A stretch of DNA of 64,000 nt from Rhynchobatus australiae (lineage: Eukaryota): positions 85,353,411 to 85,417,410 of the forward strand of contig JAUZTB010000087.1 of the NCBI GenBank assembly GCA_034780895.1, given 5' to 3'. Below are positions 786 to 62,765 of this stretch, piece by piece (within the stretch, counting starts at the first letter, position 1; each line of letters opens with the position of its first letter). The notes beneath the pieces were generated by a model, which worked only from the letters and a program-made list of their open reading frames with translations, was not told where the DNA came from and did not search any database. The translations under genes were made by a program, and so were the position numbers.

Positions 786-842
786 AAAATGATCCTGAGT
801 CTGACTTTGGCTGCATTATTTGACAGTATTGCCTATCTAATG
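786..842 (+). CDS. Internal coding exon A of a cAMP-receptor-like (class E/GCR1-like) 7TM receptor, ~TM2: KMILSLTLAALFDSIAYLM
   Basis: Pyrimidine tract and ...cctaatag acceptor; ATG|gtaagt donor; 57 nt, phase 0-0; hydrophobic helix; joins exon B in frame. Confidence 0.85.
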
Positions 843-1544
843 GTAAGTGGATAATAACTTTAATGGACCATACCTGAATTATAGATTTTTTTCAACCTTA
901 AACCTTCAGAACTTAATGTACTATGATTCAGTTTATAATTTATTCTAATACTTTATGTTGTACAGAAATTTTTAACAATTTCTAATTCACTTGCACATTT
1001 TACAAAATAAAAGAAAATATCTGACACTGTGCCCTCCGTTAGATTAAAGTAAGCAGGTATTATGTAATAGATGCAAGCTACATTGCTATGTTTTAGGTTA
1101 ATCGTACTAGAAAGATTTTTAAAAATCTATTCTTAAATGTATTTGTGCTATTACTTACATTTGCTTTTTCGAAATGCTATATCTTTACGTAAGCTCTACA
1201 AGAGGGAATTAAAATTGTGTTTGATGGTGGGCACAGACTCGATGGGCTAAAGGGGGCCTGTTTCCGTCCTGTATCTTTCTGTGACTCTACAACTGCAAGT
1301 TATATAGAAAATTAACCCAAAATATGTATATTTTTAAAAATATATTATTTTATTATTTACCAAATGTTAAAGAAAAATGCCACATTGTGCCAAAGAGTAT
1401 AACCTTTCAAAGTATATTTTTGTAATATAGTACTACAAAGTTTTTGAAAGTTCTAGAATATTTGAATAGTTTCTTATTTCTATTAATTTAATTGTTTTTT
1501 TAACCAAAGTTAAAGTAAATGTATTCTCCTTAGACAGCCCCACG

Positions 1545-1850
1545 TGATTGAGGATAACTTGCTAATCTACTCCAGTTCTTTGGGTGATGAGGTGACCAGC
1601 ACAAAAGGGGCATGTATTGCTTGATGGGGTGGGTGCATAGGTGGATAGTTTGTGAGGTGGTGTGTTCCTTCCGCCATTGACCAGATGGGCTTCTGAGTGG
1701 TCCTCATGAATGGACTCAAGATTAATGCCTTTCTGATAGCTCTTCCTGCATGTTGAGAATGTCATGAGCCATGGATTACCGTAAGTGTAGGGATATTACA
1801 GTTTTTCAGGGAGGCTTTGAAAGTAATATTGAAGGGGTCCGTCTTGCCAT
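1545..1850 (-). mobile_element. Old RTE-clade LINE 3' fragment
   Basis: Resembles the RTE-like copies at 45330 and 57240 (tgaggataacttgct...; gaggctttga...). Confidence 0.45.
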
Positions 1851-1944
1851 GATGTACTTGTGATGCAATATGTATATTTCTCCATATAAAATAATTTGCA
1901 TGCTTTGGAAATTGATTTGGTTTCTGTTCAACTATATGAAGCTC

Positions 1945-2655
1945 TGACATAAAATCAGAAAATGCTTGAAACACTGGGCAGGCCAGGCAGCATTTATAGA
2001 AAGAGACACAGTTAACACTTCAGGTTGAAGATCCTTCATGAGAATTGAGAAAAGGAGAAAGCAAGTTGGTTTTAATTTGCAAAGAGCATGGGGGAGGGAT
2101 GGATAGGACAAAAGGCATGGNNNNNNNNNNNNNNNNNNNNNNNNNNNNNNNNNNNNNNNNNNNNNNNNNNNNNNNNNNNNNNNNNNNNNNNNNNNNNNNN
2201 NNNNNNNNNNNNNNNNNNNNNNNNNNNNNNNNNNNNNNNNNNNNNNNNNNNNNNNNNNNNNNNNNNNNNNNNNNNNNNNNNNNNNNNNNNNNNNNNNNNN
2301 NNNNNNNNNNNNNNNNNNNNNNNNNNNNNNNNNNNNNNNNNNNNNNNNNNNNNNNNNNNNNNNNNNNNNNNNNNNNNNNNNNNNNNNNNNNNNNNNNNNN
2401 NNNNNNNNNNNNNNNNNNNNNNNNNNNNNNNNNNNNNNNNNNNNNNNNNNNNNNNNNNNNNNNNNNNNNNNNNNNNNNNNNNNNNNNNNNNNNNNNNNNN
2501 NNNNNNNNNNNNNNNNNNNNNNNNNNNNNNNNNNCCTGACCTGAAACGTTGACCGCCAGCCTTTCTCCATGGATGCCCCCTGGCCTGCTGAGTTCCTTCA
2601 GCATCATTGTGTTTTTCATCTAGATTCCAGTATCTGCAGTCCTTTGTTTCTCTAG
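1945..2655. mobile_element. Penelope-like terminal repeats in inverted orientation around an assembly gap
   Basis: Left arm aatgcttgaaacactgggcaggccaggcagcatt is roughly the reverse complement of right arm gatgccccctggcctgctgagttccttcagcatc; adjacent to GIY-YIG remnants. Confidence 0.6.
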
Positions 2656-2694
2656 TATTACCACAGTGGACTGGCCAGTTCTGATACAGGCCAG

Positions 2695-3920
2695 AAAAGT
2701 GAGTTACCTGAAGTTATAGAATTCAATATTGGATTGGGAAGACTGCAATATGCCCAGATGGAAGATGGGCTGCTGATCCTCAAGTTTTCCTTAGGCCTCG
2801 TTAAAATAGGATAGGAGGGCACAGACAGGCAGGATACAGTGGGAGGTGGGATGGAAATTTGCAGACACGTGGATGCTTAATGTTGCTCCTGCAAACTGGA
2901 TACTTTTAGTTTCTTCCTTTTTTTTTGGCCTATTTGTTTATTTTTGTAATTTATAGATTTTTATGTCTTTGCACTGTACTGCTACCCCAAAACAACAAAT
3001 TTTATGTCATATGTCAATAATAATAAATGTACTGATTCTGAGGTGTTCTGCAAAGTATTTACCANNNNNNNNNNNNNNNNNNNNNNNNNNNNNNNNNNNN
3101 NNNNNNNNNNNNNNNNNNNNNNNNNNNNNNNNNNNNNNNNNNNNNNNNNNNNNNNNNNNNNNNNGTTCTGCAAAGTATTTACCAAATTTGCATTTGATTT
3201 CTCCAGTGTAGAGGAGACCACATTGTGTGTAACAAGTGCAATACACTAGATTGGAAGAAGTGACAGTGAATCTCTGTTATACCTGGAAGGAGTTAGCAGA
3301 AGTTTTAGAATTCAGTGTTCAATCCAGATGGCTACAATATGTCAATGTGGAAGATGAGGTGTTGTTCCTCAAGCTTGTGTTGGACCTCATAGTAACTGGC
3401 AGATTAGAGTGAGAATGTTGTGGGGAACTAAAGCTCAGGCTCATTCCTGCAGACCAAATGTGGTGTTTTGCAATGCGATTACTCGATCTACATTTGACTT
3501 CTCTAATACAGACAAGACCACATTATGAAAACAGAATGCAGACCAGTAGATTGGAAGAAGTGCAAGTAAATCACTGCTTCACCTGGAAAGATTGATCGAA
3601 TCCCTGGATGGTGGGAAAGGAAGAGGTGTCACATTTCTTGTAGTTGCATGCTACAAGTAGAGGAGTGGTTGGGGAAGATGGAAAAGCATACCAGGAATTG
3701 TGAAAGGAATGGTCCTTTTGAAATACTGCAATGGGAAGGGAAGATGTGTTTGGTGGTGGAATTTTTTTTGAAGGTGGTGGAAATGTGAAGGATGATGTAT
3801 TGAATGTGAAGACAGATAGGGTGAAAGGTGTGGACCGTGGAGCTCTGTCCAGGAGGAGAAGAACTGAGAGCAGTGGTGCAAGAAATAGATGAGAATGGGC
3901 CAAGGGCTCTATCAATATCT
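2695..3920 (-). mobile_element. Two tandem decayed Penelope-like GIY-YIG endonuclease fragments, the first interrupted by a Rex/Babar-type tail
   Basis: Recurring gaccacatt...tagattggaagaagtg blocks at ~3217-3262 and ~3516-3562; similar to the GIY-YIG copy at 14988-15290. Confidence 0.6.
2905..3041 (+). mobile_element. Rex/Babar-type LINE 3' tail
   Basis: tgcactgtactgct...aaaacaacaaatttt...aataaa...tgattctga; a reverse-complement copy lies at ~34991-35042. Confidence 0.5.
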
Positions 3921-3985
3921 ACTACAACCAATATCTGTAGTTTTTTGATTTTTATTTACTGTATGAAACTTTGCCTTTGATACAG

Positions 3986-4046
3986 GGAGAAGTTATCCCG
4001 GATGGTGCCCTGTGCAACTTTCAAGCCTGGTGGCTTACGTACTTTG
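3986..4046 (+). CDS. Exon B of the 7TM receptor, ECL1/top of TM3: GEVIPDGALCNFQAWWLTYF(D)
   Basis: ...tttgatacag acceptor; TTTG|gtgagt donor; 61 nt, phase 0-1; carries the TM3-top Cys in a CxFQ motif. Confidence 0.9.
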
Positions 4047-5869
4047 GTGAGTAGTGTGCTTCTTTTTGTGTACAGAAACCTAAAACTTGTCATACTGATT
4101 TCTAATATTATTTACACATAATAAACAAATCTTTGTGTATTTTCTTCTCTTTCTGATGTATATATTTGGAAACATCTTTTGTTCATCTCAATATGCTGGA
4201 ATTGCAATCTGCTAGAGTTTAATGAAATGTCTTCTTGGTCTTTTCATTTGTTACAGTGAGGTACAGTATGCAAGTATCTTTTGTAGCAGATTGTGTAGCT
4301 TTATTGCTTCTGTAATTCATTAACATTTCTGCATCACTATAAGCTTTTTGTGCCTAAAAGCACTCTTGGCAATTCTTAATCTTTATTACTACGTTTGGCA
4401 TGTAATATGGAAAATTTTTATGAGCTTTATTATATGTTTTTGTAATGCTTGGTTAAATGTTACATAGTGGGCTACATTCCAACAGAGACCATTTTTCGAG
4501 GAATGAAAGGGTGCATCTGGAGAAATATGCATTGTCACTTTCGCAATCCTGGAAGGATATGATAACAGTAGCAATGAATACTGCTTATAATAAATAGATA
4601 TTTTATGACGTATAGATATTTCAATCAAACACTGTGAACAAAGTGTAAAGGATTCCAGGAGAGGCCAAGGGACATGGTACATAGAACAGTACAGCACAGG
4701 GACAGGCCTTTTGGCCCACAATGTCACAACATAACATGATGATGAATTGAACTAATTTTCTTCTGGCACAGGGATGTAAAAGGAATGCAGCAGAGAGAGG
4801 TACAGGGAGCTTAAAAGGAATGTGATAAATAGAACCCCTGGGCCTCAGGTTATTATTTTTTTCTAGATGAAGATGGTGACAAAGAGATTTGCCCTCTCTC
4901 CTGTAGGATGAATCTACTCCCATCCACAGGAAAGTGGCATGCTGGGACCCTGTAGGAAATCATAGTTTGCCTACGTTGGGCAGCACCATAAGAGGAGCTG
5001 AAGATTCTCTTGGACTTTTTGAGAGAGGTTGGGTTGTTGTGGGTTAGGCTGCAGGTTTTGGGTGGGATAACTGCTGAGACCAGGTAGAGGCAGACAATTG
5101 GAAAAGTGGGAAGCTTCATTCTTTAGAGAGAGAGAGAGAGCTATCAGCAGCTGGGAATTGGGCAGCAGTAAGGGTGGAGTGCATCTGTGGGATTCAAGAG
5201 AGAAAGGAAGAGTTAATAAGCTAAGCAGGATGGAAATGAGTAGAGAGAGTGTGAACAGAGAGGGACTGGAACCAAGGGAGTGGGGAGACTGAGGAAGATG
5301 GTTAAGAGTCTTAGAAATAGGGAGACTGAGGGAGAAGTACTGAGAAAGAGCTGGTAAGATTATCTGTGTTCGTGATAAGTGGGAGATCAAAGTACCTTTG
5401 TGGACTTTGTGTATATTGTGCATGCATGTGTGTCTGTGTGCATGTGCTTAGTCTGGGTAGCAGAGCCTGGTCTCCAATTGTCTTGGACCTCCTTACCATA
5501 GGACCTTGCTTTGTCAGGATCTTGGAGATGCGGGTGTGCAATCCCATGTTTTAATAAAAATTCAAACACTGGTACTTCCACTCCTCATTGGAAGCAAGTT
5601 ATCCTCAATACTGAAGGTCTGCCTAAGTAGAAGATATACAGCCATCTATGCATGATATTCACATGTTGTAAATCCTCTGCATTCTGCTTGCATGCATTGT
5701 AGATAACTGCAGGTTTCAGTTGTAGTTATTTATCTATAATTTAGCGCAAACCTTTTGAGACTAATATTTTTTAATATTTTTTAAAATATGTAATTAACAC
5801 TTAAATGTTTTACAATGGCACAGACGATTGATGAGTTTAATGAAATGTCTTATTATTCTTTTCTTTCGT

Positions 5870-6190
5870 AGAATCATTGAGTCAAACGGCACAAAAGCAA
5901 GGCCATTTGGCCCACTGAGTCTTTGCTAGTTCTAAGGCATCAATTTACACTACTCCCATCTTCTCCCAACATTACCATCAATTTCCCCCCAGCTTCCACC
6001 TCCCACCTACAAACCAGGGGCAATATGCATTTGCCAATTAACCTATGAACCCNNNNNNNNNTAGGGTGTAGGAAGAAATTGGAACACTCAGAGGAGACCC
6101 ATGCAGTTACAATGAGAACATGCAAACAGACAGCACTGGTGGTGGGGATTGAACCTGGGTCACTGGAGCTGCATCATCATGCCACCCCTG
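5870..6190 (-). mobile_element. tRNA-derived V-SINE with CR1-type tail (HE1-like)
   Basis: Minus-strand B-box (gggattgaacctggg on +), V-core (ggaacactcagaggagacccatgcag on +), CR1 tail (aggccatttggccc on +). Confidence 0.7.
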
Positions 6191-6954
6191 GAGATGACTG
6201 GAATACTTTTTGTTTTGTCTGCAGTCAAAAAATTATTCTTTTTCATCATATTACTTTTTAACCTTCTTTTGTTGAAGCATAAAGACTTGTGAGAATCAAT
6301 GTATGGATAGTATAAATGCTACATTTAACAGCTCTGTCTTGAATTAATGATCTCACTAAGTAGCAGCTTTTTTGGATTATTATAGAAAAGGTAAAGGTTA
6401 AGGAGATAGGAGATGGGAAGTTACAAAGTGATGAGGATTGTTTCTGGTTAGAGAAGGGAATTAGTGGCTGGTTTTAAAAGTGTGGATGCATTTTTTGAGG
6501 TAAGCTAAAATTTAAAATGTATTTGACACGGGAACCAGGAAGGTAAATTGGTGGCTGGCTCTATTGTTAAATGGATCAAAGGGACAAGAGGTGTGAATGC
6601 TGAAGTGGAAAACTTACCAGATTCTCAAAAATCAGTAGAGAATACATATTCAACAGAAAGTGGCATTGAAGATGGATGTTAGCGTTGATTGTCCAAGAAA
6701 AATACACTTTTCTGTCAAATATGGAATGTTGCAAGAGAACCAATCTTCATGGTCTAAGTATTAGTAGATGTTGTTGAAGGTTGTCTCCTCTTGGATACAG
6801 TTTCCTTCCCCTTCACATCTGCTATTATCTTCCCTCCTCCCTAGAAAGAACACCAATGACTCCTCCTTGCCAGAGGTGAGAACTTGAGAATGCTTTGAGC
6901 AGGGATGGAGGCAAAATTAGATATGGAAGGTAATAGATTAGGAAGTAATAAATA

Positions 6955-7250
6955 CTAGAAACAGCATTGGGCCATTCAGCTCTTCATTCTGGACCTCCAT
7001 TCAGTAAGATCATAGCTAATATTTCATGTTAGTGCTACTTTCCTGCATTAACCCCATATCGCTTGATTTTCTTAATATCTAAAAATATGTCAATCTCTAA
7101 CTTGAATAGCCTCAGCATCTAAGCCTCCATGGTTCTCTTGGGTAGTGAAGGAATTCCTTCTCATGTCTGTCCTGAGTGGCCAACCCCTTACTTTGAGAGT
7201 CTCAAAATAACTCTGATCCCTGATTCTAAATCCCTCAGCCAAGGGGAAAC
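6955..7250 (-). mobile_element. CR1 LINE 3' fragment
   Basis: gggccattcagctc...ccattcagtaagatcatagct...tgcattaaccccatatc: reverse complement of a CR1 3' end. Confidence 0.6.
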
Positions 7251-8869
7251 ATTAACACCAAAGGTATAGAGGGTACAGAACTTTTGAAATGCATTCTTGA
7301 AAATGTTCTTGGCAGGCAACAATTGAGGGGGCAGTTTTGGACATGGGAATGAAACTGAGGCTTAGAAATATTTTATTAAAGGCGTACTTGAAATGACTTA
7401 TAAAATGTAAATCAGCCAGACCAGTGGAGAATATTCAATTTAGAGATGGTGAGAGTTCATAGAAATACATTACCATATAGGAAAAAGATGGGATTCCCAA
7501 TACTTAGAGTTCCTGAATGAAAAAGAACATACAAGTTAGGATAATGTGTTGAAAGAAAGCATGTAAAATTCTGAGGGTGTAGAAAGTCAAGAGAAGAACA
7601 GAAAATGTGGAGCTGAAATTAAAGCCAATATGAAGGCAGACAAAGTGCAGGAAAAACATTGCCAAGAATGTTTTAAAACATAAAAGGCAGGTGGGTAACA
7701 AAGGAAAGACCTTGGGCCTGTCCAAAACTGAAAGTTTAACCTGAGTGTGGTGAGAAACATGGCTGTGGTCATAAATGAATATTTAGTTTCTGCCTTCATG
7801 AAGGTACTCTTAAAATCATTGTAGTTAAAGAGGAAGAGTTACTAGAAAGGATAAATGTGATATTAAGCACATCCTGAGTCATGTAAAAAGTCAGAAAAAT
7901 CTTCCGTATCTGCACTATCATGCATTTTAAGCAGTAGAAGCAGAGTAAGTGATAAGTACTTCTGTTCCTGATCCATTCCAGTGTGGTTTTTAGTTGTCAT
8001 CTATCTACAATATTCCTTGCTTCAGCAGTAGTGGTCAATAAACTGCTTTGTTCTCCTGGTACTGTTTCATCTATTTAAATGTTCATAAATGGAATTCATG
8101 TATGGAATCTAATATAGGAGGAAGAAATACTCATCCGTTGAAAGTCCATATGCCAGTAAATACTTCTTCACAACTTGATCCAGAATGCTGAAAGTTACAA
8201 AGCAGAGAATAGATTGTCTAAATGCAGACTATGATGATAGCAACCATATCTTTGCTTCATTGTTTTGTTTGGATGTTGTTACATTAGTGAAATGCTTAGT
8301 GGCACACAGGAATCCATAAAAAGGCTTTGCACAAGGATTCTTCATTTTCACTTTATGACATGAAACTTTGCGGCTGTTTTTTCCTATTCCAACTTTTGTG
8401 TGGTTATAAATATCCGTACTGTTCCTTTGCTGGAGGAACATTGTTGAGGATAAGGTCAAAAATAGTTAACCTATTGACTCTTTATGAATGAGATGGCATA
8501 CTGTATCACAGCAGCCTTACTGACTTTGGCCTTTTTAGGAATACCTCATTTATCTTTCCCAGAAAGCTGTATGAGAAACATGAAGAGAAAACTGATAGGG
8601 ATAGCAGGAAAAAGAATATAAGTAAGAAATGATGTGAAGGGGAAGAACGTGAACAGGAACTTGGAGTGGGAATAGTGGAAAATTGAAGGGAAAAGGGAGA
8701 ATGTGTAACCAGAATTAGAGGGAATTAAAGGTATGTGTGAATCATAAATAGCGAGTAGAGGACTGACCATAAATGAAAATTAGTGTTTAAACTAAAATGA
8801 AAGAGGTATATAAAATTATAAGAGGCATATATACAGTAAACAGTAAGAATCTTTTTTTGTATCAAGAAC

Positions 8870-9172
8870 AAGAGAGCATAGGTGAGAAGAAGGGGTTTTA
8901 AAGGGGATTTGAGGGGCAAGTTTTTCACACACAATGGTTGCTGTTTGGAACTCGCTGCTAGAAGAAGTGCTGGAACCAGATATAATCACTATGTTTAGAG
9001 GACACTTAGATGGGGATATTTACATAGGCACTTGCAGCGGCAAGACATAGAAAGACATGGACCTAGTGCAGGCCAAAGGGATTAGTGTAGATGGGCAAAA
9101 AGGTCAGCATGGATGTAACAGGCTGAAAAATCTGTTTCTGTGCTGTACAACTCCACGACTACATGATTCTAT
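8870..9172 (+). mobile_element. CR1 LINE 3' end
   Basis: ttttcacacacaatggttgctgtttggaactcgctgcta (FTQRVV..WNxLP-like), ending in ...gattctatga. Confidence 0.7.
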
Positions 9173-9729
9173 GAATGCAATCAAAGAGTACAAACTAGAA
9201 GGAAAATGAGAGAAAGAAAACCACGTGGGATGTGAAAAAAAGAGAGAAACTAGAGAAAGCAAAAGGAAAGAAAAACTGTGGAGACATAGAGGGAAGATAA
9301 ACAGATGAGAAGGAACAGAAAGCAACATTCATGCAAGATAGGGAGAGGCACAAGGAGATAGAAAGAGACATATTGATAGAAGAGAGAAACTGAATAAAGA
9401 AGCAAAAGGGGTGAGAGGAAAGGTAGGAGGGAAAAGAAGAGAGAGATGAAAATGCACTAATGAGAAAAGAATGAAAGGTGGAAGGTAATGAGCAGACAGT
9501 GGCAGAGTTTCTCCCTCTCCCCGTCCCCAANNNNNNNNNNNNNNNNNNNNNNNNNNNNNNNNNNNNNNNNNNNNNNNNNNNNNNNNNNNNNNNNNNNNNN
9601 NNNNNNNNNNNNNNNNNNNNNNNNNNNNNNCTGCCCGAGACTTGTTGGTCTTCCAGCACTGCGAGATGTCCATAGGGGAATGTGCCAGTCCGCACTGAAG
9701 CTGAGTGAAATCAATCGAAATTGGGGAAA

Positions 9730-10100
9730 TTGCTCCAATTTCAATGTGACCTGAAGAGCTGTCAGGGTTGGGCTGGTATGTGATGAGTAACATTTACACC
9801 ACATCACAGACATGGCAGCCATTTACTATCTTTTACAACAGGTAATCTAACCATTTTCCCAAGACATTTAATGACATTGCTATGATCCGATCCACCATAA
9901 ACAACATCCTGAGGGTAACTATTGACCAGAAAATTAATTGAGTTTAGGCACTTGACTACCATGGCTACTTGAGCACATCAGGTGGTCAGCTGGGACTGGT
10001 GATATACATCCTGCCTCCTTAAAACCTTTTTACCACCAACAAGGCTCAAGTTAGGAGTGTGATATAATGGTACTCACTTGGATAAGTGCAGCATCAACTA
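9730..10100 (+). mobile_element. Ancient CR1/L2-group LINE reverse transcriptase fragment
   Basis: aacatcctgagggtaactattgaccagaaa (NILxVTIDQK) and aaggctcaagttaggagtgtg (KAQVRSV); same family as 42470-43760. Confidence 0.55.
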
Positions 10101-10239
10101 CATACATGATGATAAGGGGGATTCAAAACAGAGTTGATGGTCAGCTATGAAGATAAAGAAATTGTATTTATTTTGAACTGTTCACTTGCACAAGACAGCA
10201 TGTGGAAAATTTTATCCCCACTGCCAAATTGTTGTGAAA

Positions 10240-10465
10240 TACATCAGCTAATTTCCCATAAGCAGCAATGTGTATTTGTTTTGGTAGTGTTGGTTGAGAG
10301 TGAAAACGTTAGCCAGATGACCTAGAGAAGTTCCCTTCTCCAAGTAGTATCAAGAGGTCTTTGCCAATCATCTAGGTTTAACAGTTTGCCTTAAAGAAGC
10401 CATCCTGATGATGTAAACTTCCACAGTTCTGTAATGTAGTTGCTGCCTAGATTATGTGCTTGAAT
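10240..10465 (-). mobile_element. Deu-domain SINE (SacSINE/AmnSINE-like) fragment
   Basis: Reverse complement matches the Deu-core layout seen at 61922-62130. Confidence 0.5.
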
Positions 10466-10484
10466 CAAAAAACAAAAAAAAACT

Positions 10485-11080
10485 GTAGATACTGAAAACC
10501 TTGAAATAAAAAGCTAGGATTTTGGAAATATCTAGTAAGTCAGCAGCATCTGTGATGAGAAAAACAGAATTATCTTTACATCGACAGCAGGAAAACTTAG
10601 AAATTAAACATGTTTAAGTGCAGTAATTGGTGAAGGACAGAGAGAACAAAGGGGCTGTCTGTAATAAGGCAGAGACCAAGAAAGACTGAATGGCTCAAGT
10701 GGCGGTGGTGCTTGCTGAGAGAGACTGCTGCAGACTTTTTTTTGCTCTCCTAGTTTTTATCATCTGCTTTTATTTACATCTTCTCCAAACAGATCATCCA
10801 CAATTAAGAAGCCTCCGCAATCCTCTCTCAGCCAACATTGCAACTACTTGCGTCACTTTGTCTCTTTTGTCTCCACCCCTTCACAGACATTCCCTTTAAT
10901 ATCTCCAACCTCCTCCCTCTAATCTCACTCCACCTCAATTCTCTGCAACTTAAAATATATTTAATTTCTAACTTTTACTATTTTGATGAAAGATCATGAA
11001 TCTGAAGAATTTTCACTATTTCTCTCTTGATAAATGCTTCCTGACCTGTTGAATATTTCAAGTATTATCTCTTTTTATAT
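10485..11080. mobile_element. Fold-back of two inverted Penelope-like terminal repeats
   Basis: ttagaaattaaacatgtttaagtgca (~10597) pairs with tgcaacttaaaatatatttaatttctaa (~10944); outer arms also match. Confidence 0.6.
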
Positions 11081-11161
11081 CCTTGAGTATCTAGAGAGGT
11101 ACTTGAGTTCCTGACCTGATTAAGAGTCAAGGCTGCTGCCACTACTGGCAGTACATTGCTA

Positions 11162-11500
11162 TGGGCAGCAGAGTAGTGTAGCTAGTAGAGCTGCTCCCCC
11201 ACAGTTCTAGAGACTCAGGTTTGATCCTGACCTTTGGTGTTGTCAGTGTGAAGTTTGCACATTCACCCTGTAGCCACCTGGGTCTCCTCTGGGTTTTGCA
11301 GCTTCCTCCTATATCATGAAGACATGTGGGTTGGTTAATTGACCTCTGTAAGTTGCTAGTAGTTGGTGATAGAATCTATGGGGAGTAGCAGGTAATGTGG
11401 AGATATTAAAAATAAAATTAGTATAAGTGGGTGCCTGATGGTCAGCATGAACTTGGTGGGCTGAAGGGCCTGTTTACACGCTGAATGATTCTGACTATGA
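11162..11500 (+). mobile_element. tRNA-derived V-SINE with CR1-type tail
   Basis: A-box-like agtagtgtagctagtag, B-box-like ggtttgatcc, V-core ctgggtctcctctggg...cttcctcc, tail gggctgaagggcctgttt...gattctgactatga. Confidence 0.7.
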
Positions 11501-14500: not shown

Positions 14501-14619
14501 GAACAGGGGCAGCCTATCAATCACACTATGCCATACCACCTGACTTGTCAAAAAGATTGTGCAGAGTTAATCAGGCAGAAATCTATATGGGAAAAGGAGA
14601 TTGTGCAGAGTGTCTCCAA

Positions 14620-47851: not shown

Positions 47852-48413
47852 TGTAAGTCAGCTTTGTCTTTGTGAGGTCACTTTCACTTCTGAATCTGCT
47901 TGCATTCTCCCTTTACAATTGTAAGTTCCCCTGGAAAATGGGGAAGATTATCCAAGCACATCCTTTGGATACCAAAATGCTTGGGAAAAGAATGAACATT
48001 TATCCAAAATATTAATTTTAAGCCATTAAGAATGGTCACAGTTGTAATCAAATGATGTATGATGAATCAATACTTGCCAACATATAGTTTTTGAATAGAT
48101 GAAATTCAGTTTGGCAGGGACATGATTTTTACAAAACTTGCCAATTTACCACCTTGTGCACCATTTGAGTTTTACTCAGCAGTATTTAATGCCAAGACAT
48201 TCTGATTTTGAGAAGTAGAGTCCAATAAATTACATATAAAGGAGTTAAATACTTTTGCATATAAATTTCAAAGTGTTTTTGAACCATTGTNNNNNNNNNN
48301 NNNNNNNNNNNNNNNNNNNNNNNNNNNNNNNNNNNNNNNNNNNNNNNNNNNNNNNNNNNNNNNNNNNNNNNNNNNNNNNNNNNNNNNNNNAGTGTTTTTG
48401 AACCATTGTGAGC

Positions 48414-51400: not shown

Positions 51401-52117
51401 ACGGACATTTGGTGATCATGACAAAGTCTACACTCGACTCATGCACGAAGAAAACTGGCAACCAGCCGTCGTCCGGCATTGTAACAGTCAAGTTGCAGAA
51501 CTTGAACTGACAGACAGATGAATTGTCAGGCGACATTTGGATCGTGTATGCTGGTGAATTGACAGAGGACCCAGCGAAGCCACAGAAGAGTTCTTTGCTG
51601 ATGAAGCAGTCATTCCAGCAGATTAACCAACGGATGCCTCATCAAGAGAGGAGGAGGTTCACAGCCCACCGACCTAAGCATTGGCTAATCAGGAAAACAC
51701 AGAGAGAAGCTGCCCATGTCTGGTGGTCCACAAGGGTGCGTCGGCTGGTCGACCAGTACCAGACAGGATAGTGACGGAAAAACCATCTCACTGTTTTTCT
51801 ATGTTCACCTATCTTATTTCTTCCCCTGTACTTCCCTTCTATGGGGCGAGGGATGAACCGTACAGAGAATACGTCAAGTACCACGCATGCACCTGTGTGC
51901 GTCTGTCACTTGATCACTCAATGGATCAATAGCGTTCTCCAATGCATGGACGTCCTTTATGATGCAGAACTTCGGGGACCCGCGCGCTTTTGTCTCTATC
52001 GGCCTTCTCGTTGCTCTCGCACTGTAAGTTGCTTAGTTTTTATGTAATTATCATGCTTCAGTAAAAAAAATATTTATTCTACTGCACCGTTGTCATTTTT
52101 GCTCCGTGCATACATAA
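48414..52117 (+). mobile_element. Decayed Ty3/Gypsy LTR retrotransposon (Mag-like)
   Basis: Partial 5' LTR ending tacgtaaca at 48603; PBS-like tggagacgga; twin Zn knuckles 48952-49053; protease LDSG (49226-49237) and LLGRDW; RT YPLPRIED, LPFG, YLDD; RNase H IAFASR, TDHRPL, VADALSRLP; integrase PYHAASNGLAE (~51120); PPT ggggcgaggga; 3' LTR ~51854-52117. Multiple stops and frameshifts. Confidence 0.95.
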
Positions 52118-54504
52118 GTTTTCAGCTTTCAAACTAACTCACTGGGCAACTTACATGAAACCAAATTTATTCTGATAAAATAGAATTGGCAAATTGAAGT
52201 ACTTATAGTTTATAATCATCTTGGATTGAACTGCTTGTGGTAATATAATGCAATGCTTTTTCAAGGTATATTATTTCTTCCTTTAACTCAAGTTGTCTTA
52301 CAAAATTATGATCTGATATGCTTAATGTACAACAGTCCAGCACTGAATGGTTTGTCTGTTGTAGCATCATGTCTATAAAAATAGCTTAATTCTTTAAATT
52401 CCATCCCTATTTCCATGTTTGCATTGTTCAGTAAATTCTTAGGAGTTAGTATACCAACTCTCCCAGCTCTCCATTTCCACAAGACATGCACAATCTTGTT
52501 CCTTTAAATCGGAAGGGCTGCAGACTCTGACACTCTAACACATCAGCTAGTTGAACCCCAGTTTGGCTTGAACATGTTAAACATTACTGTATCTTGTTCC
52601 GTTTGGCTAACTTTTCTCCTACTTCACAATCATCTGGAAGCTAACTATAACCCAAGGCTGATTTCCTTCCTGTCTGTCTGGCTTATCGGCTGCAATTCAA
52701 ACTCAGAACAATTTTTAGATTTCTTTCCTTTAAAATTGAGGACTTTTCTGCTGCCTCCTTTGCTGTGTCTCTTCGACCTAATTTTTTTCCTCACTTTATG
52801 CATTTTAGCAATTATTTCCCTTCAGTCCTACTGACTTCCATCTCCATTATTCACCCCCCCCCACACACACACACTCACATTGTAGCTTCTTTCACATCCC
52901 TGCTCTCAGTCCCAACGTCATCTCGAATCTCACCTTATCTGTGAGATCCACTATCTATTCACTTTATATTTACTCTACCCTTTAGGCATAGTGATGTTTT
53001 TAATGGCAGTATTTGCTTGGATAGTTCTCATCTCTTTAAAGTACTCAGTTTGACATCTTATCTGTGAATGGCCCCTTTTCTGACTACCCATTCCTCTTTA
53101 TGATCCTTGATTGTCATGGAACAACTTTTTATTGCTATCTCTCAAATTCCTTTATTTTCCATTACTTTGGCTTCTGATGTTCACAATATCAAGTCCACCG
53201 AGACCAGAGTCACTATTGTCATGATTTATTGTCTTGACTCAGGTGAGTTATTTATCCATGTCCTAAGTAGGATGTTTATTTTAGAGCTTTATTCCTGTAT
53301 TGTCCAAGTTCATGAATTCCTACTTGTGATTCCAGTGCTAGCTGCCCAAATGCAATAATGCTTGTCCACAGCAGCTTTACTTCCCATCTGTCTAAAAGTG
53401 TTCAAATAATCTGTTCCTGGCTTCCTCCTTTTCCTTATCGCAATGATNNNNNNNNNNNNNNNNNNNNNNNNNNNNNNNNNNNNNNNNNNNNNNNNNNNNN
53501 NNNNNNNNNNNNNNNNNNNNNNNNNNNNNNNNNNNNNNNNNNNNNNNTGATACCTTTTGATGAGCTCTTATACATGCATGGGATCAGCTCCCACATGCCT
53601 GCCTGTGATGTCCAGTACTACATCAACAGCAAAGTCAGCATTTTTAGCCCCAAAGGTTCTCATGATTTGCCTGTTTCCATCATTCAGTCCAATATTATGT
53701 CAGACTGAAGTAGATTAAACAAAATGATGTGTTTCAAATTGAGCTCAAGCCCTACATCAACATGATAACTCCTGACACTGTAACGTTGCCTATCTCTGCC
53801 CCTACCTGTGTTTGCTTTTATTACCTCTTGAATTGATAGGTTCAATGATCTGCATTTGAGCATCCATATACACCTTCTGTAATTTCAATTTATCAAAAAA
53901 GAATTCACATAGGTTTAAAATGGCTGCATTTTCTCTGTGGTAACTCATCCCAAATTCAGTGTGAAAATAATGAGCTTTTTGAAATACAGCATTCACTCTT
54001 GCTTCAAATTATTGATCTGAGCCATATTTAAACTACCTCATCTTTTCTGTGATATATTCCTGAAAAATATGCAAGTTGGGTCATTTTTAACATGTGCAGT
54101 GTAGATTATAGAAATGGATATCCATTTGGGAGCACTGGCATGAGCTGGATTTAAGTCAATTTGCTTTGCACCATCAGCTGTCATTGGGAACCAGATTATT
54201 TTTATTGAGCTGGAACCATTGCAACATATTAATTGGCACANNNNNNNNNNNNNNNNNNNNNNNNNNNNNNNNNNNNNNNNNNNNNNNNNNNNNNNNNNNN
54301 NNNNNNNNNNNNNNNNNNNNNNNNNNNNNNNNNNNNNNNNGGCACAATTTTCATGTTACCTCTTGATGCACCTTGGCAAAAAGTTTACGTACTCCACATT
54401 ATGTTTGCATGTCTTATTCACCTCTGCAGGAGTCTGCAATTTTCCCGATGCTGCTGTCTCCTGCATTAGGACCTGTTCCCAGAAAAGTAAGTCTCAGAAA
54501 AACT

Positions 54505-55380
54505 TGAGCAGATTAATGAGATTAGTAGACACATAGCAGATGAAATTTAATCCACATACAGGCCATCTCCGGGTGATAAACGGGTCCCATTTTTATAGAT
54601 GTCCTTAAGTCAATTTTGTCCATGTGGGGAAAACACACAAAAATCACTCAATGTGGTAACCATACCTCCACAGTATTGTAAAGAATGGCTTCAGAAACAC
54701 ATAAGACTGATAAGAAAGAACAATTACTAAAAATGCAGAGAGAGTGGAAACTAGTTCTGCCATTCATAGGAATGAATATACAAAATTAGGTCAGACTTTT
54801 GAATTTAATAATATTATGGGAGCTTGTTTGAATGTACAGGTGTCCATAAGTCGTGTGTTCTTAACCTGGGGACAGATTGTAAATGAGAAATAAAACATTT
54901 GGCAAGACAGAGTGAGGAGAGGCAATATAAACTAAATTGTATATTTTTAAAAGGGGCTACTAATCCTGGGAATCATGCATCCAAGTTTGAATGTGGCAGG
55001 AATGATTGGTAGATCTAATGCAGGGCATACAGAAGCCAAGGTTTTCAAAGATATAAACTACAAACTTAAGGAATTTGTGCTGCACCACATTGATTAGGAC
55101 TCAGATTGAACCTCTGTCTCCAACCATTTAGGTAGCATCTGCAGCCCCAGGAAAAGATGAAGAAGAGAAACACTTGAATGATACCAGAGATAAGAAATTT
55201 CAGTTATGTAAAGGGTATAGAGAAGTATTGATTGTCCTTCATAGTTTAAAGTAACATTTTATAAAGCTATACAAAACTAAGAGAATTTGGTAGAATGAAT
55301 AAGGAAAAAGTTTCTGGTGGTGTGTGAGATCAATTATCAAAGGTTACAGATTTAAGATCAGTGGCAAGTAGGCAGAGGAA
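54505..55380 (+). mobile_element. Old CR1 LINE 3' fragment split by a MITE
   Basis: cagatgaaatttaatcca|insertion|aaatgag...catttggc reconstitutes a QMKFNP..K...HFG-like CR1 motif. Confidence 0.6.
54559..54879. mobile_element. Tc1/mariner (Tigger-like) non-autonomous DNA transposon / MITE
   Basis: TA on both flanks; imperfect TIRs CAGGCCATCTCCGGGTGATAAAC and, reverse-complemented, CAATCTGTCCCCAGGTTAAGAAC; 321 bp. Confidence 0.65.
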
Positions 55381-57239
55381 TATCAATTAATTCATGCAGA
55401 CAAAATTCATTTTGCATTGTGATATATATTATATTATGAAATGTTAACATTATAATTTATTACTGTTTAATCAAATTGAAAATATTTTGTGATAAAATTC
55501 TTAGAAAATCTTGAAACGTTCAGTGTGATTGTCATTACAGGATGATCAGTTTCACATAATTGTGTCTTCAAAATATCCTGATTTCCCATGGAATTGGTTC
55601 TGACAAGTTTGAAAATGTGAGCCAAAAAAATTGTCAGCACTTTCTTCCAGCTTTAAGATAGATTTAGCAATCCCCACTAATGTTGTTGTAAACAAATTTT
55701 AAAATGCATTAGAGCCAATTCCAAACCAGTCTTGCAGGCTCCATTATGTAATATCATTCTTGTACCAGGAACAACTGGCACTTGAGGTCAAATATCCTAC
55801 ATTAGTGGCATCTTTTCTCACAGCTCTGAGCTCAGGAAGTAGCCCTTCGAGGGTCACTCTGCAATTCAGCCAGCACTCTTTCAGCTACTGGGCTGTGTTG
55901 GCNNNNNNNNNNNNNNNNNNNNNNNNNNNNNNNNNNNNNNNNNNNNNNNNNNNNNNNNNNNNNNNNNNNNNNNNNNNNNNNNNNNNNNNNNNNNNNNNNN
56001 NNGCACATTTCCCTAAAATGTTATGATTTTTTAAAAACGAAACACTGGATGTGAGGGATCTGGTTACTGCTGGAAATCCTTGAGCTCTCCCTTGCTAAGT
56101 ACCGATAAGAGAGTGCTGGGTATATACTGCTCCACCATGGTAAACAGGATATTAGCAACCCACTTAATGCATCTGCATACTCAAGATGTCAGTGGCTTAT
56201 CCATAGCAACCAGAACTTGAAGGCCACTGGCACAGTGTGTTGCCATGAATCAGCAGGCAGCAAGTTCTGTTGCTGGAATAACAACTTTTCTTCATTTTAA
56301 TTTGATCTTAGTTTCTTTAATCATCCAGAAATTGTAGCTTCAGATGACCTTCCTTCCTCACTCATGTGATTATGTTTATTTAGTACCTGATCTCCTCATT
56401 GAAAACTTCTGATTGCTCATTCACTATTTTCCCTGGTGATCATTGCTTTCATTCCTTCTCGGCTATATTGAGTACACCTGTAAGGGCACCAGAACACCAG
56501 GCAATAGCAGACATTAAACAAGAGACCATGACCATAGTGTGTGGTTAGATACCCATTTCTACACTTCAGCCTGTTATTGTTAGAGACCAGCATTTTCCTT
56601 TAAATGGCTTTCAAGGATTGCAAGGATTGGTTACAATCATGCTTCAAGAATTGCTTTGCTGTTTTAAAGTAGGTCTTGAAGATAATGCATTTGATGTGGG
56701 TAGGCCGTTCACTTTGCAACACCATGAGGAGACTGTCAATCTTACTAAAGTGAGACTCACAAGATAAAATTGATCAGTCCTCAGTCTAGAAGTGTCATCA
56801 TGTCTCAAATCCATGTATGACTGGTCCTTCACAGGGTGCAAATTGGGTCTCTTGTCTAACAGCATACTTAACTCCAAATAGGAAACTATTGTCTTCATCC
56901 CTTAGCTCCTATCACCAGTTTGTTTCCCTTCCATGCTCACAAGGCTGGATTGCTTGGCCCATCACATGATGGCTTTTTTCCTTGCAGTACATGCCTTCCA
57001 ACAAACCTTTGTTGACCTTGATGGACTCCTTATGGATGATCTTACTGATGAAACCTGTACACCATTGGCATCAGCAGTGTGCAGGAGAGATTAGTAAAAG
57101 GGCACCTCATGAATGCCAACACTTTAGATCGACATGCTACTAGATTATGTGCATAATTGTGAGCCCCATTGTTTATGGAATATTGCTACATATAAATTGG
57201 TTGTTGTTTTTGTTACATCCTCTGACAACAGTTCCTCAG

Positions 57240-57640
57240 GTTTAAGGATAACTTGTTCCAATCCAATTCTGTGGATTCTAAGGAACTGTGGACTCTGTCC
57301 TAGATGAAAAAGATGATGCCAGGTGGTGTCAGAGGCCAGGGATGAATTGGTGAGGTTGTTACATATTTTTCAAGGAAAATTTAAAAATGTCCTTGAAGAA
57401 CTTTCTTTGCCCTCTTGGAAATCTCTTGCTATTGCAGAGCATGAAGAGCTTGCTTCAGGAACCTGGTGTCAGTTATGTGAATGATGTAGCCCTCCTAGTA
57501 TGGCTGGCTGAATGTGATTAGAGCCTTGATGATGACGATGTTGGCCTGGGAGAAGGGTGCTGATATCAGTTCACTAATCCCACCAATGGATTGGAGGATT
57601 TCACGGAGAGAGTTTTGATGGTACTTCTTCAGTGCATTTT
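57240..57640 (-). mobile_element. RTE-clade LINE 3' fragment
   Basis: Similar to 45330-45900 (ggataacttg...ttctgtggattct...; tggaggattt...ttgatggt). Confidence 0.55.
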
Positions 57641-58679
57641 AAATCATTGGAAAAAGTAACCTAAACACAAAGCTTCAGTATTGTTTGAACTAATTATTCT
57701 GAATTCCTCTAGACTATATTTCCAACTATGTTTCCTGTTTCAAAAGGGGACTTTCAACAAATGATATTTAATTCTGAAATATGTACCAGATGGATACATA
57801 TCATCATCTGCAACTGCTTTCTAAATCCACCAAGGTCTGAAATATTTCACTTTGGCCTTGGGCTCAATTCCAAAGCATGAAAAGATATTGGTCGGAAATG
57901 GAGAAGATTTGGTTGTTTTTTGGTTGCACCAATTGACAAGATAATCACATTGAGAAGGGGTATTCTTTAATTAAAATATTATGTAACATAATCCCTAATT
58001 TTGAATCCTAACACCAAGACATTTGAACATTGAAAATAGATTTCTTTAATTCAAAGACAATGCAGTTTCTGTTTTTTGTTTCATTTTAANNNNNNNNNNN
58101 NNNNNNNNNNNNNNNNNNNNNNNNNNNNNNNNNNNNNNNNNNNNNNNNNNNNNNNNNNNNNNNNNNNNNNNNNNNNNNNNNNNNNNNNNNNNNNNNNNNN
58201 NNNNNNNNNNNNNNNNNNNNNNNNNNNNNNNNNNNNNNNNNNNNNNNNNNNNNNNNNNNNNNNNNNNNNNNNNNNNNNNNNNGTAAGCATTCAGATTTAA
58301 ACTTAAGCCTGACAAAAAAATGTTTCTGCTGAAGCTATTTTCTTCTCTTTATGAACCAAGCACAGTAATCATATTTTTGAATAGATGTTTAAGATATTTA
58401 AGATATCAGTTATGTTAATTAATTCTTCAGTTGTAAATTATGTTGATAATATGCAATGAATTGATTACAGAGACATGAGACTGCAGATGAATTGATTATG
58501 TTATTCATAGGTTTTAAAAAGTTGTGGATTATGTCCATTTTCTTTGAAGCATGTTAAATTAGATTATTACTACAAATGGTCTGCACCTTGATTTATTGTG
58601 TTATGTACTTAGTAATTTTAATGGTTTCAGCTGCTCTTTATTTCTATTTCCTATCTAAAGAATACTTCTTTCTTTCCAG

Positions 58680-58718
58680 CTGGATTACAGATGAACATGT
58701 TGTCTGGAGATTTGGCAT
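58680..58718 (+). CDS. Exon E of the 7TM receptor, ECL2: (C)WITDEHVVWRFG(I)
   Basis: ...tctttccag acceptor; GCAT|gtaagt donor; 39 nt, phase 2-2; completes the WCWI motif across the junction with exon D. Confidence 0.9.
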
Positions 58719-59171
58719 GTAAGTATACTTCAAGTCATTCAAGCCTGTTAATAAAATCAAACTTTCCTCTGTCGAAGCATCTTTGTTGTGCCTTTGGTTG
58801 GATATCAAATAAGCCCTTATCAGGCAAACATGATGGAAATGGTAAAGTCAAAAGGGACGATTGTGTGAATNNNNNNNNNNNNNNNNNNNNNNNNNNNNNN
58901 NNNNNNNNNNNNNNNNNNNNNNNNNNNNNNNNNNNNNNNNNNNNNNNNNNNNNNNNNNNNNNNNNNNNNNAAGCCCTTATCAGGCAAACATGATTGAGAT
59001 GGTAAAGTCAAAAGGGACGATTGTGTGAATCAAATTGTTATGGTTTTGAGGTTTGGATAATAAGAGACTCAGAGGGTGTGGCAATGTAACACCCTGAGTA
59101 GTTGCCATGGTAAGTGCTTTCTAAAATAATCTCGAGTTAAACAATAAGTAATATTTAGTATTAAAGGGTCA

Positions 59172-59297
59172 CAAGCAGGTTTAGAAGGTTATGGGCCAAA
59201 TGGTGGCAAATGGGACTAAGTTAGATGGGCATCTTGGCCGGCATGGACCAATTGGGCCGAAGGGCCTGTTTTCGTGCTGAATGATTCTATGACTCAT
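59172..59297 (+). mobile_element. CR1 3' tail fragment
   Basis: gttatgggccaaat...gggccgaagggcctgttttcgtgctgaatgattctatgactc. Confidence 0.75.
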
Positions 59298-61040
59298 TAA
59301 CATTCTCTTTTCTCCCAATCTTTATCTTTGGATAGTCATCTTAATGTACTCTTACTCATCAAATATAGCATTATAAAAATAACATGGGCATATTTTATTT
59401 ATTTTAAGTAGAACTTGTCATACTTTAGCATTGAAGTTTAATGAAATAATTGCCCTTAAAGAACCACATCCCTTAAAAATCCTCATATGTAAATGATGTA
59501 TGCTCCGTATTTCACTGCCACCCCTCAAAATGTTTTTGAATGATGCTTTTTGCAGAGGGCATACTTATATTTCATATTAAAAATGGCGAATGGTCCCAAG
59601 ATGCCAAAAGTTGTGCTCCAGTGTAGTGTAGTAAACAAAACAGCCTGGAATTTACTCAAAAACTTATGCTATGACAATGTTGTAAACCTGTTACCTGATG
59701 GAGAAGGAAAGTGAATTAAGCCAAATTCCTTGGACTCTCATCCTGCTTCCTGGGGCTCTTCCAATAACCCACCATGATTTATCAAATTGCTTCACACCCA
59801 TTCAAAATGATGGTGATTGTAAAATTTCCAAGATTGAAACTGATTTTCTTGCATTGCCCTGTTTTGCCTGGGTTTTTTGTTTATATGTCTCAACATGACA
59901 TCTTAAATATTCCTGACTGGGCACCCATGAACATTTGAAGCTGATACTTTTTTGTAATCCCATTTCATTGTTTGGATGCATAGAATGATGGATGTTAATA
60001 TTAAAACAGAAAATATGTGAGTACCTCAGTTGTTGATATTCAATCTTAATTCCACCTCCATTGACCACAAGATCTTTCCTACAAAGCATTAAGATCATTA
60101 CAAAGCATAAAGATCATTACTTATGCTCTCCTTCCCTTTCCCAAATCCAGCGAAGCTGCTTGAGAACCAGGCAGTTGTGATTTTATTTTCTTTGGAGGAT
60201 TCCCTTATTTCCAGTCATCATAGGCAATATAAAGATGAATTTGAGGAATTCAGGCCTAGATGTGGAGCCTTTTTCACCATATGTGCCTGTACTTTCTCTC
60301 CTTCATCGTGTTCAGATGCAAAAGAGTTCTCAAAGCCTGACAAGTGAGTGGTTATGGAATAGATCACTGCAGCTTCTGAAGGATATCATTAGGGATGAAT
60401 AGTAAGCTTGATGTGCATTTCAGATGCATCTTCGGAAATTCTAGAATACCAATCAAATATCAGGGTCCTTCCAGCTGTTTGTAGGATTAGGCTGATGTCT
60501 CTGGGCAGGTTCCGTTGCTGAGGGGAGGTGCAATGAGGATCACTTTTCTCCACCATAATTGAGATGACTATTGAAATTCTCATCATGCTTTACATGCCTG
60601 GGTCAGTTGTCATAATACCTGTCTTCAGTTGACTCCATAATAATTCAAGTGGGTTGCACAATATGTTTCTGGCAAGAACATGGATACGTTAAGGAATCCC
60701 AAGAGGAAATACCAGATGACAGATCCAATGTGGTCTCTAGTCACATTTAGTCAGAAAGATCTCTCACCAACAAACCTGTGCTGAATATCACTGATCAATC
60801 CCTGTGTTTCCATTCATGCCCTTCAGAATTTTCTCCAGTACAGTATACTCTGAACCATCAGGCATCCATGGAATGCCAGTTGCATGAGAAAAAAAACATT
60901 ATTGTATATCACACACTGGTATTCTATGGCTAAACCTTTAAATAAATTGCTGAACTACATGTCATCTCCTTACCCCTTTAAATAACAATGTTTTACACTG
61001 CACTCTGTACTTTAAAGCTAATGTAAAATATAGCAAAAAT

Positions 61041-61400
61041 TGTACCGTATGGACAAACCATATAGAGAATGTGGTGAATGCACATGCGTGCACCTGTGTG
61101 CATGCCAGTCAGTCAATCGTCCAGTGGATCGATGGCGTGAATGTGACAGTACGCATTTGCGAGCCTATGTACATGTGTGCACTGGCTGGCCGATCGCTCA
61201 GCAGAACAACCACGCCNNNNAACCACGCCCTCTGACGTGTGTAATTTCACTTTTGGCACGGGACTTTGAGGACTTGCGCGCTTTTAGGTCTCCGCAGACC
61301 TTCTTGTGGATCTACAACTGTTCTGTATTTTGCTCAATATGAATCAGTAAAGATGTTTATTCTACCGCACTAGTCATTCTTGCTCCGTGCATACGTAACA
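61041..61400 (+). mobile_element. Solo LTR related to the Gypsy element at 48.4-52.1 kb
   Basis: TGTACCGTATG...CATACGTAACA (9/11 inverted termini); flanks AAAAT/AAACT (4/5 TSD); shares tttattctac..., tgctccgtgcatac and cacctgtgtgc with the Gypsy LTRs. Confidence 0.85.
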
Positions 61401-61921
61401 AAACTAAACTAGATGAATGACTGAACTCATCATTGCATGAAGTGCCAAATCTTCAAAGAATGTTGCTACCTATCAGCTTACAACTGCACTGCCCTTATGT
61501 ATAAACTTAAATAAACTAAAAATATCTTTTCACACTTATTTTGCTAATACCTGAAATACAATTTGCTGTTTTGGTTTATTTTAATTAAAACAAAATGTTG
61601 CCATTTGCATGAGAACTCTGGATGCATGAATGCCAGATAAACGCGAGCTTACTGTAATGTCCCTACCACTAACACTAGGCTAACTTCCTTTAATTACCTG
61701 ACTTATCCTTGCCACCCTTCTTGAATAAAGGGACCACATTTTCTGTCTTCCAGTTATCTGGCCCCTCACTTGTGACTATGTATTCTCATGGTACTATTTT
61801 AAGAANNNNNNNNNNNNNNNNNNNNNNNNNNNNNNNNNNNNNNNNNNNNNNNNNNNNNNNNNNNNNNNNNNNNNNNNNNNNNNNNNNNNNNNNNNNNNNN
61901 NNNNNCCCTCACTTGTGACTA

Positions 61922-62130
61922 GGTATTCTCATGGTACTATTTTAAGAAGAGGGGAGGAGTTATTCCAGTGTCTTGGCCAATATATATCTTGGTCAATCAA
62001 CCTCACAAAACAAACTATCTGTTCACTGTTTGTAATTATGCTGTTTGTGGGTGATTCTGAGAACAAATTGATTTTTGTGTTTCTTTGTAAAGCCCTTTTG
62101 GGTGTCCTCAAGTTGTGAAGGTGCTGTATT
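61922..62130 (+). mobile_element. Deu-domain SINE (SacSINE/AmnSINE-like) with L2-type tail
   Basis: catggtactatttt.agaagagg...gtgtcttggccaatat...caatcaac...tgctgtttgtggg; tail tgtaaagcccttttggg...tgaaggtgctgtat. Confidence 0.7.
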
Positions 62131-62686
62131 TTTACTTTCTCCTTTTCTGTTTTTCAAACTACTTCACTGACTTCGAAGTCGCTATCTATTACTACTTAAG
62201 TCAGTAGGTTCTTGTTTAAAAAGTATATTTTAGGAATATTGTTGCATTAATGCTGAAACCATATATGCTATGTGCTGAAGTCCTGCATATATTTTTTCAT
62301 TAGACAGTAAAGAGAATTTAGAATGCTCTTTCTGTAAACAAAGGCAGAAGTTAATTGTGGTAGCATATTAGATGTGTCCCTGGTAATATTTTGTTCTATT
62401 GTTTTCCTTTTACTTAAATATGACCTGAATTGTATATCTTTGCATCTTGTATTCACAGGCTTAAAACATTTAAAATCCTATGTATTTTATTGCATATAAC
62501 ATACTCTTCATTTTTGAGCCTCCCAAACTTTATTCATGATATGATAGTGATAAAATATGGATTCTCCCTGGATCTTCAATGTAGTGGTTAGTAGTTGTTA
62601 CTGTTTAAGAAAAATGTAATGCCCTTTTCAGTAGAAAAACAATGCTGCAAACTGTCATGTTGATTTTGTTCACTTAATTTTTGCAG

Positions 62687-62765
62687 CTGGTACATCCCAT
62701 TGTTTGTCCTCATCTTTTTGATGATGTCCTGCTACATTCACATATTTTATGTGGCCAAACAGAGG
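62687..62765 (+). CDS. Exon F of the 7TM receptor, TM5: (I)WYIPLFVLIFLMMSCYIHIFYVAKQR
   Basis: ...tttttgcag acceptor; AGG|gtaagc donor; 79 nt, phase 2-0; hydrophobic helix followed by basic residues. Confidence 0.92.

Follow-up and report, generated by a model that had tools for sequence, protein, structure and literature searches.

Among G-protein-coupled receptors (GPCRs), class E, the cyclic adenosine monophosphate (cAMP) receptor family (Pfam Dicty_CAR, PF05462), is an ancient group that has been proposed as the source of the major GPCR families, and it includes Dictyostelium cAR1-4 and CrlA as well as Arabidopsis GCR1. cAMP binding has been shown solely for the dictyostelid receptors cAR1-4, not for Crl proteins or non-dictyostelid members, and the ligand of the family outside Dictyostelium has been named as an open question (PMC10445921). 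In vertebrates, cAMP receptors have been stated to be lost (Krishnan 2012, PMC3251606, using the Branchiostoma floridae sequence 117719 and the Lottia sequence 158835), and this loss has been repeated by a study that sampled Danio rerio and reported 28 choanoflagellate "cAMP receptors" (eLife 2025, PMC12716839). Two amphioxus cAR-like sequences have been noted (PMC2246102), class E has been described as almost exclusive to amoebae (bioRxiv 10.64898/2026.03.02.708220), and GPR157, an orphan receptor of the same superfamily, has been reported to couple to Gq and to be ciliary (Takeo 2016, according to PMC11843928). We describe a class E receptor gene of the ray Rhynchobatus australiae that encloses the whole 64,000-nucleotide (nt) stretch of DNA analyzed here (the window; G000:C87:85353411-85417410 in a 2.23-Gb genome), and that we regard as almost certainly the ortholog of zebrafish si:dkey-100n23.5.

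Identity and orthology of the ray receptor gene

The original prediction, made from the letters of the window, had chained six exons with canonical splice sites and matching phases into a 414-nt frame without a stop, and had placed the remaining transmembrane (TM) exons in the flanking DNA. We reproduced this join with an identical peptide of 138 amino acids (aa), AG/GT borders at all six exons, and phases of 0, 1, 2, 2, 2 (then 0), and we located three further coding exons upstream and four downstream, none of which introduced an internal stop. The full gene thus has 13 coding exons, all with canonical AG/GT borders, and 1065 nt including the stop codon, encoding 354 aa; the coding sequence spans G000:C87:85330268-85460669 on the plus strand (∼130 kb), and the entire window (1..64000) is intragenic. 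A frog ortholog compared with the window gave exactly six matches of at least 28 bits, all at the exons, in order and on one strand, while the same protein gave no match in 20 of 20 shuffled windows or in the reversed window. When the gar protein was searched against the genome, all strong matches (seven of ten rows) fell at this locus and the other three rows had E values of at least 0.01, with no intronless copy found. The receptor gene is single-copy and intact in this genome.

The ray protein shares 86% identity with its stingray counterpart, 84% with basking shark, 73-77% with coelacanth, 72% with frogs, 69% with gar, and 61% with zebrafish si:dkey-100n23.5, followed by Owenia (57%), amphioxus (53%), choanoflagellates (34-36%), and GPR157 (21-25%). 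The vertebrate proteins of the si:dkey-100n23.5 orthogroup are best matches of the ray protein, fall into one clade with it, and share its exon units, with isoform gaps that coincide with these units; across 61-86% identity and a 1:1 relationship, the difference is one of species only. Dicty_CAR was the best Pfam family, with 56-63 bits in five vertebrate orthologs, 82 bits in amphioxus, and 81 bits in a choanoflagellate against a gathering cut-off of 21, and most of the model was covered, in agreement with the class E membership first proposed. The 7tm_2 model exceeded its cut-off in some orthologs and still scored below Dicty_CAR, 7tm_1 stayed below cut-off in its sole match (one of four orthologs), the fungal Galpha-coupling model GPR_Gpa2_C passed its cut-off on TM6-7, and Ocular_alb (GPR143) gave a weak match below cut-off. 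The architecture also agrees with class E: a predicted seven-transmembrane (7TM) fold, short termini, the absence of additional domains, a cysteine pair between TM3 and the second extracellular loop (ECL2), a WGVP motif in TM4, and NLY in place of DRY. Adhesion and secretin (class B) receptors are a poor fit, with an N-terminus here of ∼33 residues and neither a large GAIN domain nor a hormone-binding domain. Two points temper the family assignment, as the Pfam scans and the fold prediction used orthologs in place of the joined ray protein, and a Pfam scan of four single exons gave no match. A Dicty_CAR profile search of the genome likewise missed the locus because its exons are short, and yielded exon 1 of GPR157 together with class-B-like exons and noise.

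In an IQ-TREE phylogeny of 40 named proteins picked from ∼400 (with GCR1, CrlA, cAR1, GPR143, and TMEM116 outside the sample), the ray protein was sister to shark (100/97) within a vertebrate clade (100/100), which was nested in a holozoan clade of vertebrates, invertebrates, choanoflagellates, and an ichthyosporean (100/99). By sequence comparison, the gene is the vertebrate member of a holozoan group common to invertebrates and choanoflagellates, and its ancestry reads as pre-animal. The original description as a vertebrate orphan therefore holds for "orphan" and fails for vertebrate-specific. Farther relatives, among the 30 of 150 representatives that were named, include amoebozoans, a stramenopile, Ancoracysta, and Mantamonas. 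In the Atlas, the nearest clusters beyond the family's own are mostly Streptophyta, ranking above GPR157, with a GPR143-like cluster also a neighbor; for GCR1, this is proximity only. Family members were also found in the sea spider Pycnogonum (P0150) and the coral Paramuricea (P0125). Annotation names vary, with P0096 labeled "cadherin EGF LAG seven-pass receptor 1" and P0129 "GPR157-like", though both belong to this receptor family; such inconsistent names may explain why vertebrate members have been overlooked.

We considered whether the gene could be GPR157 itself or have arisen from it by duplication in vertebrates. The two proteins are orphans of similar size that share a cysteine at position 3.25, ECL2 WCW, and the TM4 tryptophan, and both match Dicty_CAR, although two GPR157 proteins reached only 26-35 bits over the first half of the model. 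However, identity is ∼22%, and the genome holds a separate GPR157, whose first coding exon (L022:431-808; G000:C72:26320230-26320607) is 93% identical to sawfish GPR157 and encodes TM1-TM3 in one exon, against five in the ray receptor gene. GPR157 also lacks R178 and the N-terminal cysteine pair, is retained in amniotes, and falls far outside the holozoan clade, and an approximately unbiased (AU) test rejected trees in which the vertebrate group was forced together with it (p-AU 0.001). We therefore rejected this identity, which is extremely improbable, and uphold the separation from GPR157 made at the outset. That the exons belong to a pseudogene, or that exon-like segments line up by accident, is similarly far-fetched: the window contains 25 runs of N (2,993 bases) and the putative RNA data come from other species, yet all of the N runs are intronic and none touches an exon, the 13-exon frame is complete and open, the shuffled windows were empty, relatives yield spliced contigs, and identity to frog is 72%; this candidate was also rejected. 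Among GPR157 models, those of sturgeon and toothed whales (P0288, P0353, P0354, P0357, P0361, and P0368) are fused to a sugar-transporter (SLC2A5-type) domain, and are probably read-through gene models.

Distribution and the published claim of vertebrate loss

A search with a vertebrate profile returned 229 matches; among the best 120, 111 carried names, none of which was an amniote, and the nine without names grouped with teleosts or invertebrates. A full-length amniote ortholog is expected to score above the last of these 120 (379 bits), and the same database yields GPR157 from mammal, bird, turtle, and lizard. On the other side of the balance, the other 109 of the 229 matches lie beyond the best 120, and degraded amniote remnants could be among them. 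In Table S1 of PMC10416458, row 2177 (m=n=p=0, q=6) lists what is likely the frog ortholog as present in 6/6 fishes and 0/13 amniotes; the row was matched to the gene by name and species rather than by accession, and the gene was not found in the main text or the other supplements of that paper. Lamprey, salamander, insect, and nematode were not among the names listed in our search, and no search dedicated to them was made. The gene is kept in sharks, bony fishes, and amphibians, and we consider it probable that it was lost once on the amniote stem. The suspicion that it might be absent from mammals is thus borne out, with none among the 120 matches, and widens to an apparent absence from reptiles, birds, and mammals alike. 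A full-length copy is retained in Eleutherodactylus coqui (P0017), a direct-developing frog, and retention is therefore not strictly tied to an aquatic larva.

The B. floridae sequence printed in PMC3251606 is, compared by eye, nearly identical to P0095, which shares 53% identity with the ray protein, belongs to the same 100/99 clade, and has the N-terminal cysteine pair and the ECL2, third intracellular loop (ICL3), and TM6 motifs in common with it. On this orthology, the ray gene contradicts the published vertebrate loss of cAMP receptors and shifts that loss to the stem of the amniotes, because it is an intact vertebrate ortholog of the invertebrate sequences behind that claim. In PMC11843928, the best vertebrate BLAST matches of GCR1 are reported to be proteins of fishes and amphibians carrying the names of this orthogroup (4e-19, vs. 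7e-10 for GPR157), which that paper left unpursued, moving its focus to GPR157. The gene has also been named as a candidate for a gonad-weight quantitative trait locus in cavefish (PMC8139031). In a literature search that had most subscription journals outside it, no paper was found to characterize this receptor or to correct the published loss. Databases already carry an annotation of the gene, its absence from amniotes stands as an unremarked row in the supplementary table mentioned above, and the ray gene adds one more species to an orthogroup that is annotated yet unstudied. Its value lies in the link to a repeated loss statement and in a tractable vertebrate model for the ligand of an ancient receptor family. 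With a single-copy member present in zebrafish and Xenopus, its ligand, its coupling to G proteins, and its function can be tested in standard model organisms, and the receptor may offer a more suitable animal comparison for plant GCR1 than GPR157 does.

Predicted structure and candidate mechanism

AlphaFold was run on the gar ortholog (69% identity) with a 136-sequence alignment, replacing a run with nine sequences and a predicted local distance difference test score (pLDDT) of 44. The new model (pLDDT 87.6, predicted template modeling score 0.83) has seven helices, helix 8, and a beta-hairpin in ECL2. The best solved structural matches were Frizzled4 (Z 26.2), Smoothened (25.3), and LYCHOS (23.9); class A and adhesion receptors were also among the matches, which ranged over Z 21-26 and 8-17% identity with none standing out, and the structures listed included none solved for a close relative. 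Across 126 family rows, with identity down to ∼21%, C98 and C168 are invariant (126/126) and C21 is kept in 105; the former pair, expected from the start, is predicted to form a TM3-ECL2 disulfide, and a second disulfide, Cys21-Cys33, probably forms in the N-terminus. The N-terminal pair occurs in 12/16 vertebrates, 15/16 invertebrates, and 5/6 unicellular or unnamed relatives, and in 0/12 GPR157 proteins. Two arginines are conserved, R251 (117/126) and R178 (111/126), as are residues on the putative pocket side (Y183 112, W110 100, W182 91, Q101 90, N250 85, and N254 80 of 126) and in the tail (E315 88/126, Y316 97/126). Numbered from C3.25, Q101 is 3.28, D109 is 3.36, W110 is 3.37, and NLY occupies 3.49-3.51; 3.28, 3.36, and 3.37 are usual pocket positions. 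In a cAR1 docking preprint (10.1101/694810), the landmarks are SIY 103-105, CWGLP 126-130, F161, and the TM6 residue R226; the docking model ranked second there places R226 in contact with the phosphate of cAMP. The spacing of these landmarks, taken from numbering and not from an alignment, would fit N122-Y124, W145, F179, and R251 of the ray protein.

The conserved arginines on the extracellular side, R178 and R251, suggest a small anionic ligand. We propose that the protein is a ligand-gated, G-protein-coupled orphan receptor whose ligand is a small extracellular molecule, anionic or polar, a reading to which we give a probability of roughly 0.55-0.6. Conserved polar residues would hold the ligand between them at the extracellular ends of four helices, TM3 (Q101, D109, W110), TM5 (R178, W182, Y183), TM6 (N250, R251, N254), and TM7 (H269), in a capped, polar pocket of inferred orientation in which the two arginines could hold a phosphate or carboxylate. 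From there, the signal might reach a heterotrimeric G protein through NLY, at the DRY position, and through the conserved ICL3, and the Ser/Asp-rich tail could be a phosphorylation site. Coupling would probably be Gq or Gi, by analogy with GPR157-Gq and GCR1-GPA1 as PMC11843928 describes them.

Several observations pull away from such a receptor. The motifs of class A (rhodopsin) receptors, DRY, CWxP, and NPxxY, are not in the model, D109 and H269 are kept in only 63/126 and 70/126 rows of the wider family, and GPR157 has an arginine one column before R251, so that this arginine may not be unique to the group. The role of plant GCR1 as a guanine nucleotide exchange factor is disputed (PMC11843928), a ligand claimed for CrlA (4-methyl-5-pentylbenzene-1,3-diol, MPBD) is contested (PMC10445921), and our literature search found no ligand, localization, or G-protein data for the receptor. 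LYCHOS/GPR155, whose GPCR-like domain is lysosomal according to a table in PMC12716839, took ranks 6, 9, and 13 of the 50 structural matches listed, with root-mean-square deviations of 2.5-2.9 Å, among the lowest of the top matches. The protein could accordingly be read as an endosomal or lysosomal GPCR-fold protein comparable to GPR143, GPR137, or the GPR155/LYCHOS GPCR domain, sensing a lumenal metabolite or lipid and signaling independently of heterotrimeric G proteins. The sub-cut-off Ocular_alb match and the GPR143-like neighbor in the Atlas are in keeping with this, the conserved E315/Y316 tail could serve as a sorting signal, and single-copy retention since choanoflagellates looks like that of a housekeeping gene. 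We nevertheless find it unlikely, given that Frizzled, Smoothened, and class A receptors score equally or higher, that GPR_Gpa2_C passes its cut-off on TM6-7, and that the best Pfam family is the one whose cARs the same table lists as plasma-membrane G-protein receptors.

If the receptor instead recognized cAMP outside the cell, or a cyclic nucleotide related to it, in the manner of Dictyostelium cAR1-4, family membership and the two arginines, one fitting the position of cAR1 R226, would be accounted for. Against this, cAMP binding is known only for the dictyostelid receptors cAR1-4 (PMC10445921), the site at which cARs bind has not been established by experiment, and the R226 fit is one of numbering; we hold a cAMP receptor to be quite improbable. 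A bolder version deserves equally little credence: that sharks, fishes, and amphibians keep a direct descendant of the ancestral eukaryotic cAMP-receptor family, one still reading extracellular cAMP or a related phosphorylated metabolite as a first messenger through the two arginines, that amniotes lost this channel, and that among vertebrate proteins the fish and frog receptor stands in for plant GCR1 most closely, in preference to GPR157.

Exon layout, splicing, and genomic neighborhood

The coding exons are listed in Table 1; the introns between the six window exons measure 3143, 14735, 25692, 14028, and 3968 nt.

Table 1. Coding exons of the ray receptor gene in window coordinates (negative values lie upstream of the window).
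Coding exon	Position	Strand	Length (nt)	Encoded part and remarks
1-3	-23142..-23044, -20075..-20023, -18124..-18070	+		Upstream of the window
4 of 13	786..842	+	57	TM2, residues 70-88 of the 354-aa model; 95% identity to basking-shark P0002 in this segment
5	3986..4046	+	61	First extracellular loop (ECL1) and upper TM3 with Cys98; adjoins exon 6 in the X6 contig
6	18782..18869	+	88	TM3 with D109/W110, NLY replacing DRY, second intracellular loop (ICL2)
7	44562..44651	+	90	WGVP of TM4, then ECL2 up to its midpoint (first half); phase symmetric (2-2)
8	58680..58718	+	39	Finishes the ECL2 Cys168 codon; carries R178 (top of TM5); contigs show both flanking junctions
9	62687..62765	+	79	TM5
10-13	71032-71079, 74226-74308, 104363-104510, 107095-107259	+		Downstream of the window

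Splicing was assessed with contigs from coded runs of three other organisms, which were guessed to be RNA, with X4 flagged as probably DNA. The original call for spliced reads over the five window junctions was answered for four of them by contigs of these relatives: the junction 44651>58680 (GT..AG) was joined in 4/4 runs and 58718>62687 in 3/4 runs, and a 575-nt X6 contig, taken as one contig by equal length and depth, held the exons at 3986, 18782, 44562, and 62687 colinearly and with the expected spacing. The junction 842>3986 was absent among the joints listed, where read mapping was crowded by repeats, and is supported by orthologous proteins instead. Six of nine exonic differences listed in the relatives' reads were synonymous, a count that is not a ratio of nonsynonymous to synonymous substitution rates (dN/dS).

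Among 99 annotated vertebrate proteins, 17 omit exon 7 (five exon 7 alone, 12 exons 7 and 8), in frog, caecilian, shark, ray, sturgeon, and teleosts. In-frame skipping of exon 7, with or without exon 8, would remove TM4 and the ECL2 cysteine and leave a six-helix form, and may reflect conserved regulation or annotation noise. The annotated N-terminus of basking-shark P0002 follows a different frame over exons 2-3 from that of all other orthologs, likely a gene-model error.

Judged by Pfam matches, the gene order around the locus is OTC (+), a tetraspanin (+), a Spot14-family gene (+, ∼10 kb upstream), the receptor (+), and BCOR (-), in a block at G000:C87:85.18-85.57 Mb (L035, L031, L006-L007, L004, and L042-L043). 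We take the tetraspanin to be TSPAN7 and the Spot14-family gene to be MID1IP1, and we assume that human Xp11.4 has the order OTC-TSPAN7-MID1IP1-BCOR, without such a receptor between MID1IP1 and BCOR. A tumor necrosis factor (TNF)-family search for tnfsf13b, a neighbor reported in cavefish, gave no match near the locus, and an Rfam scan of the window found nothing. Intron 7 contains a 202-aa open frame (window 49304-49912, +) without a Pfam match, which presumably resembles a pol fragment of a long terminal repeat (LTR) retrotransposon.

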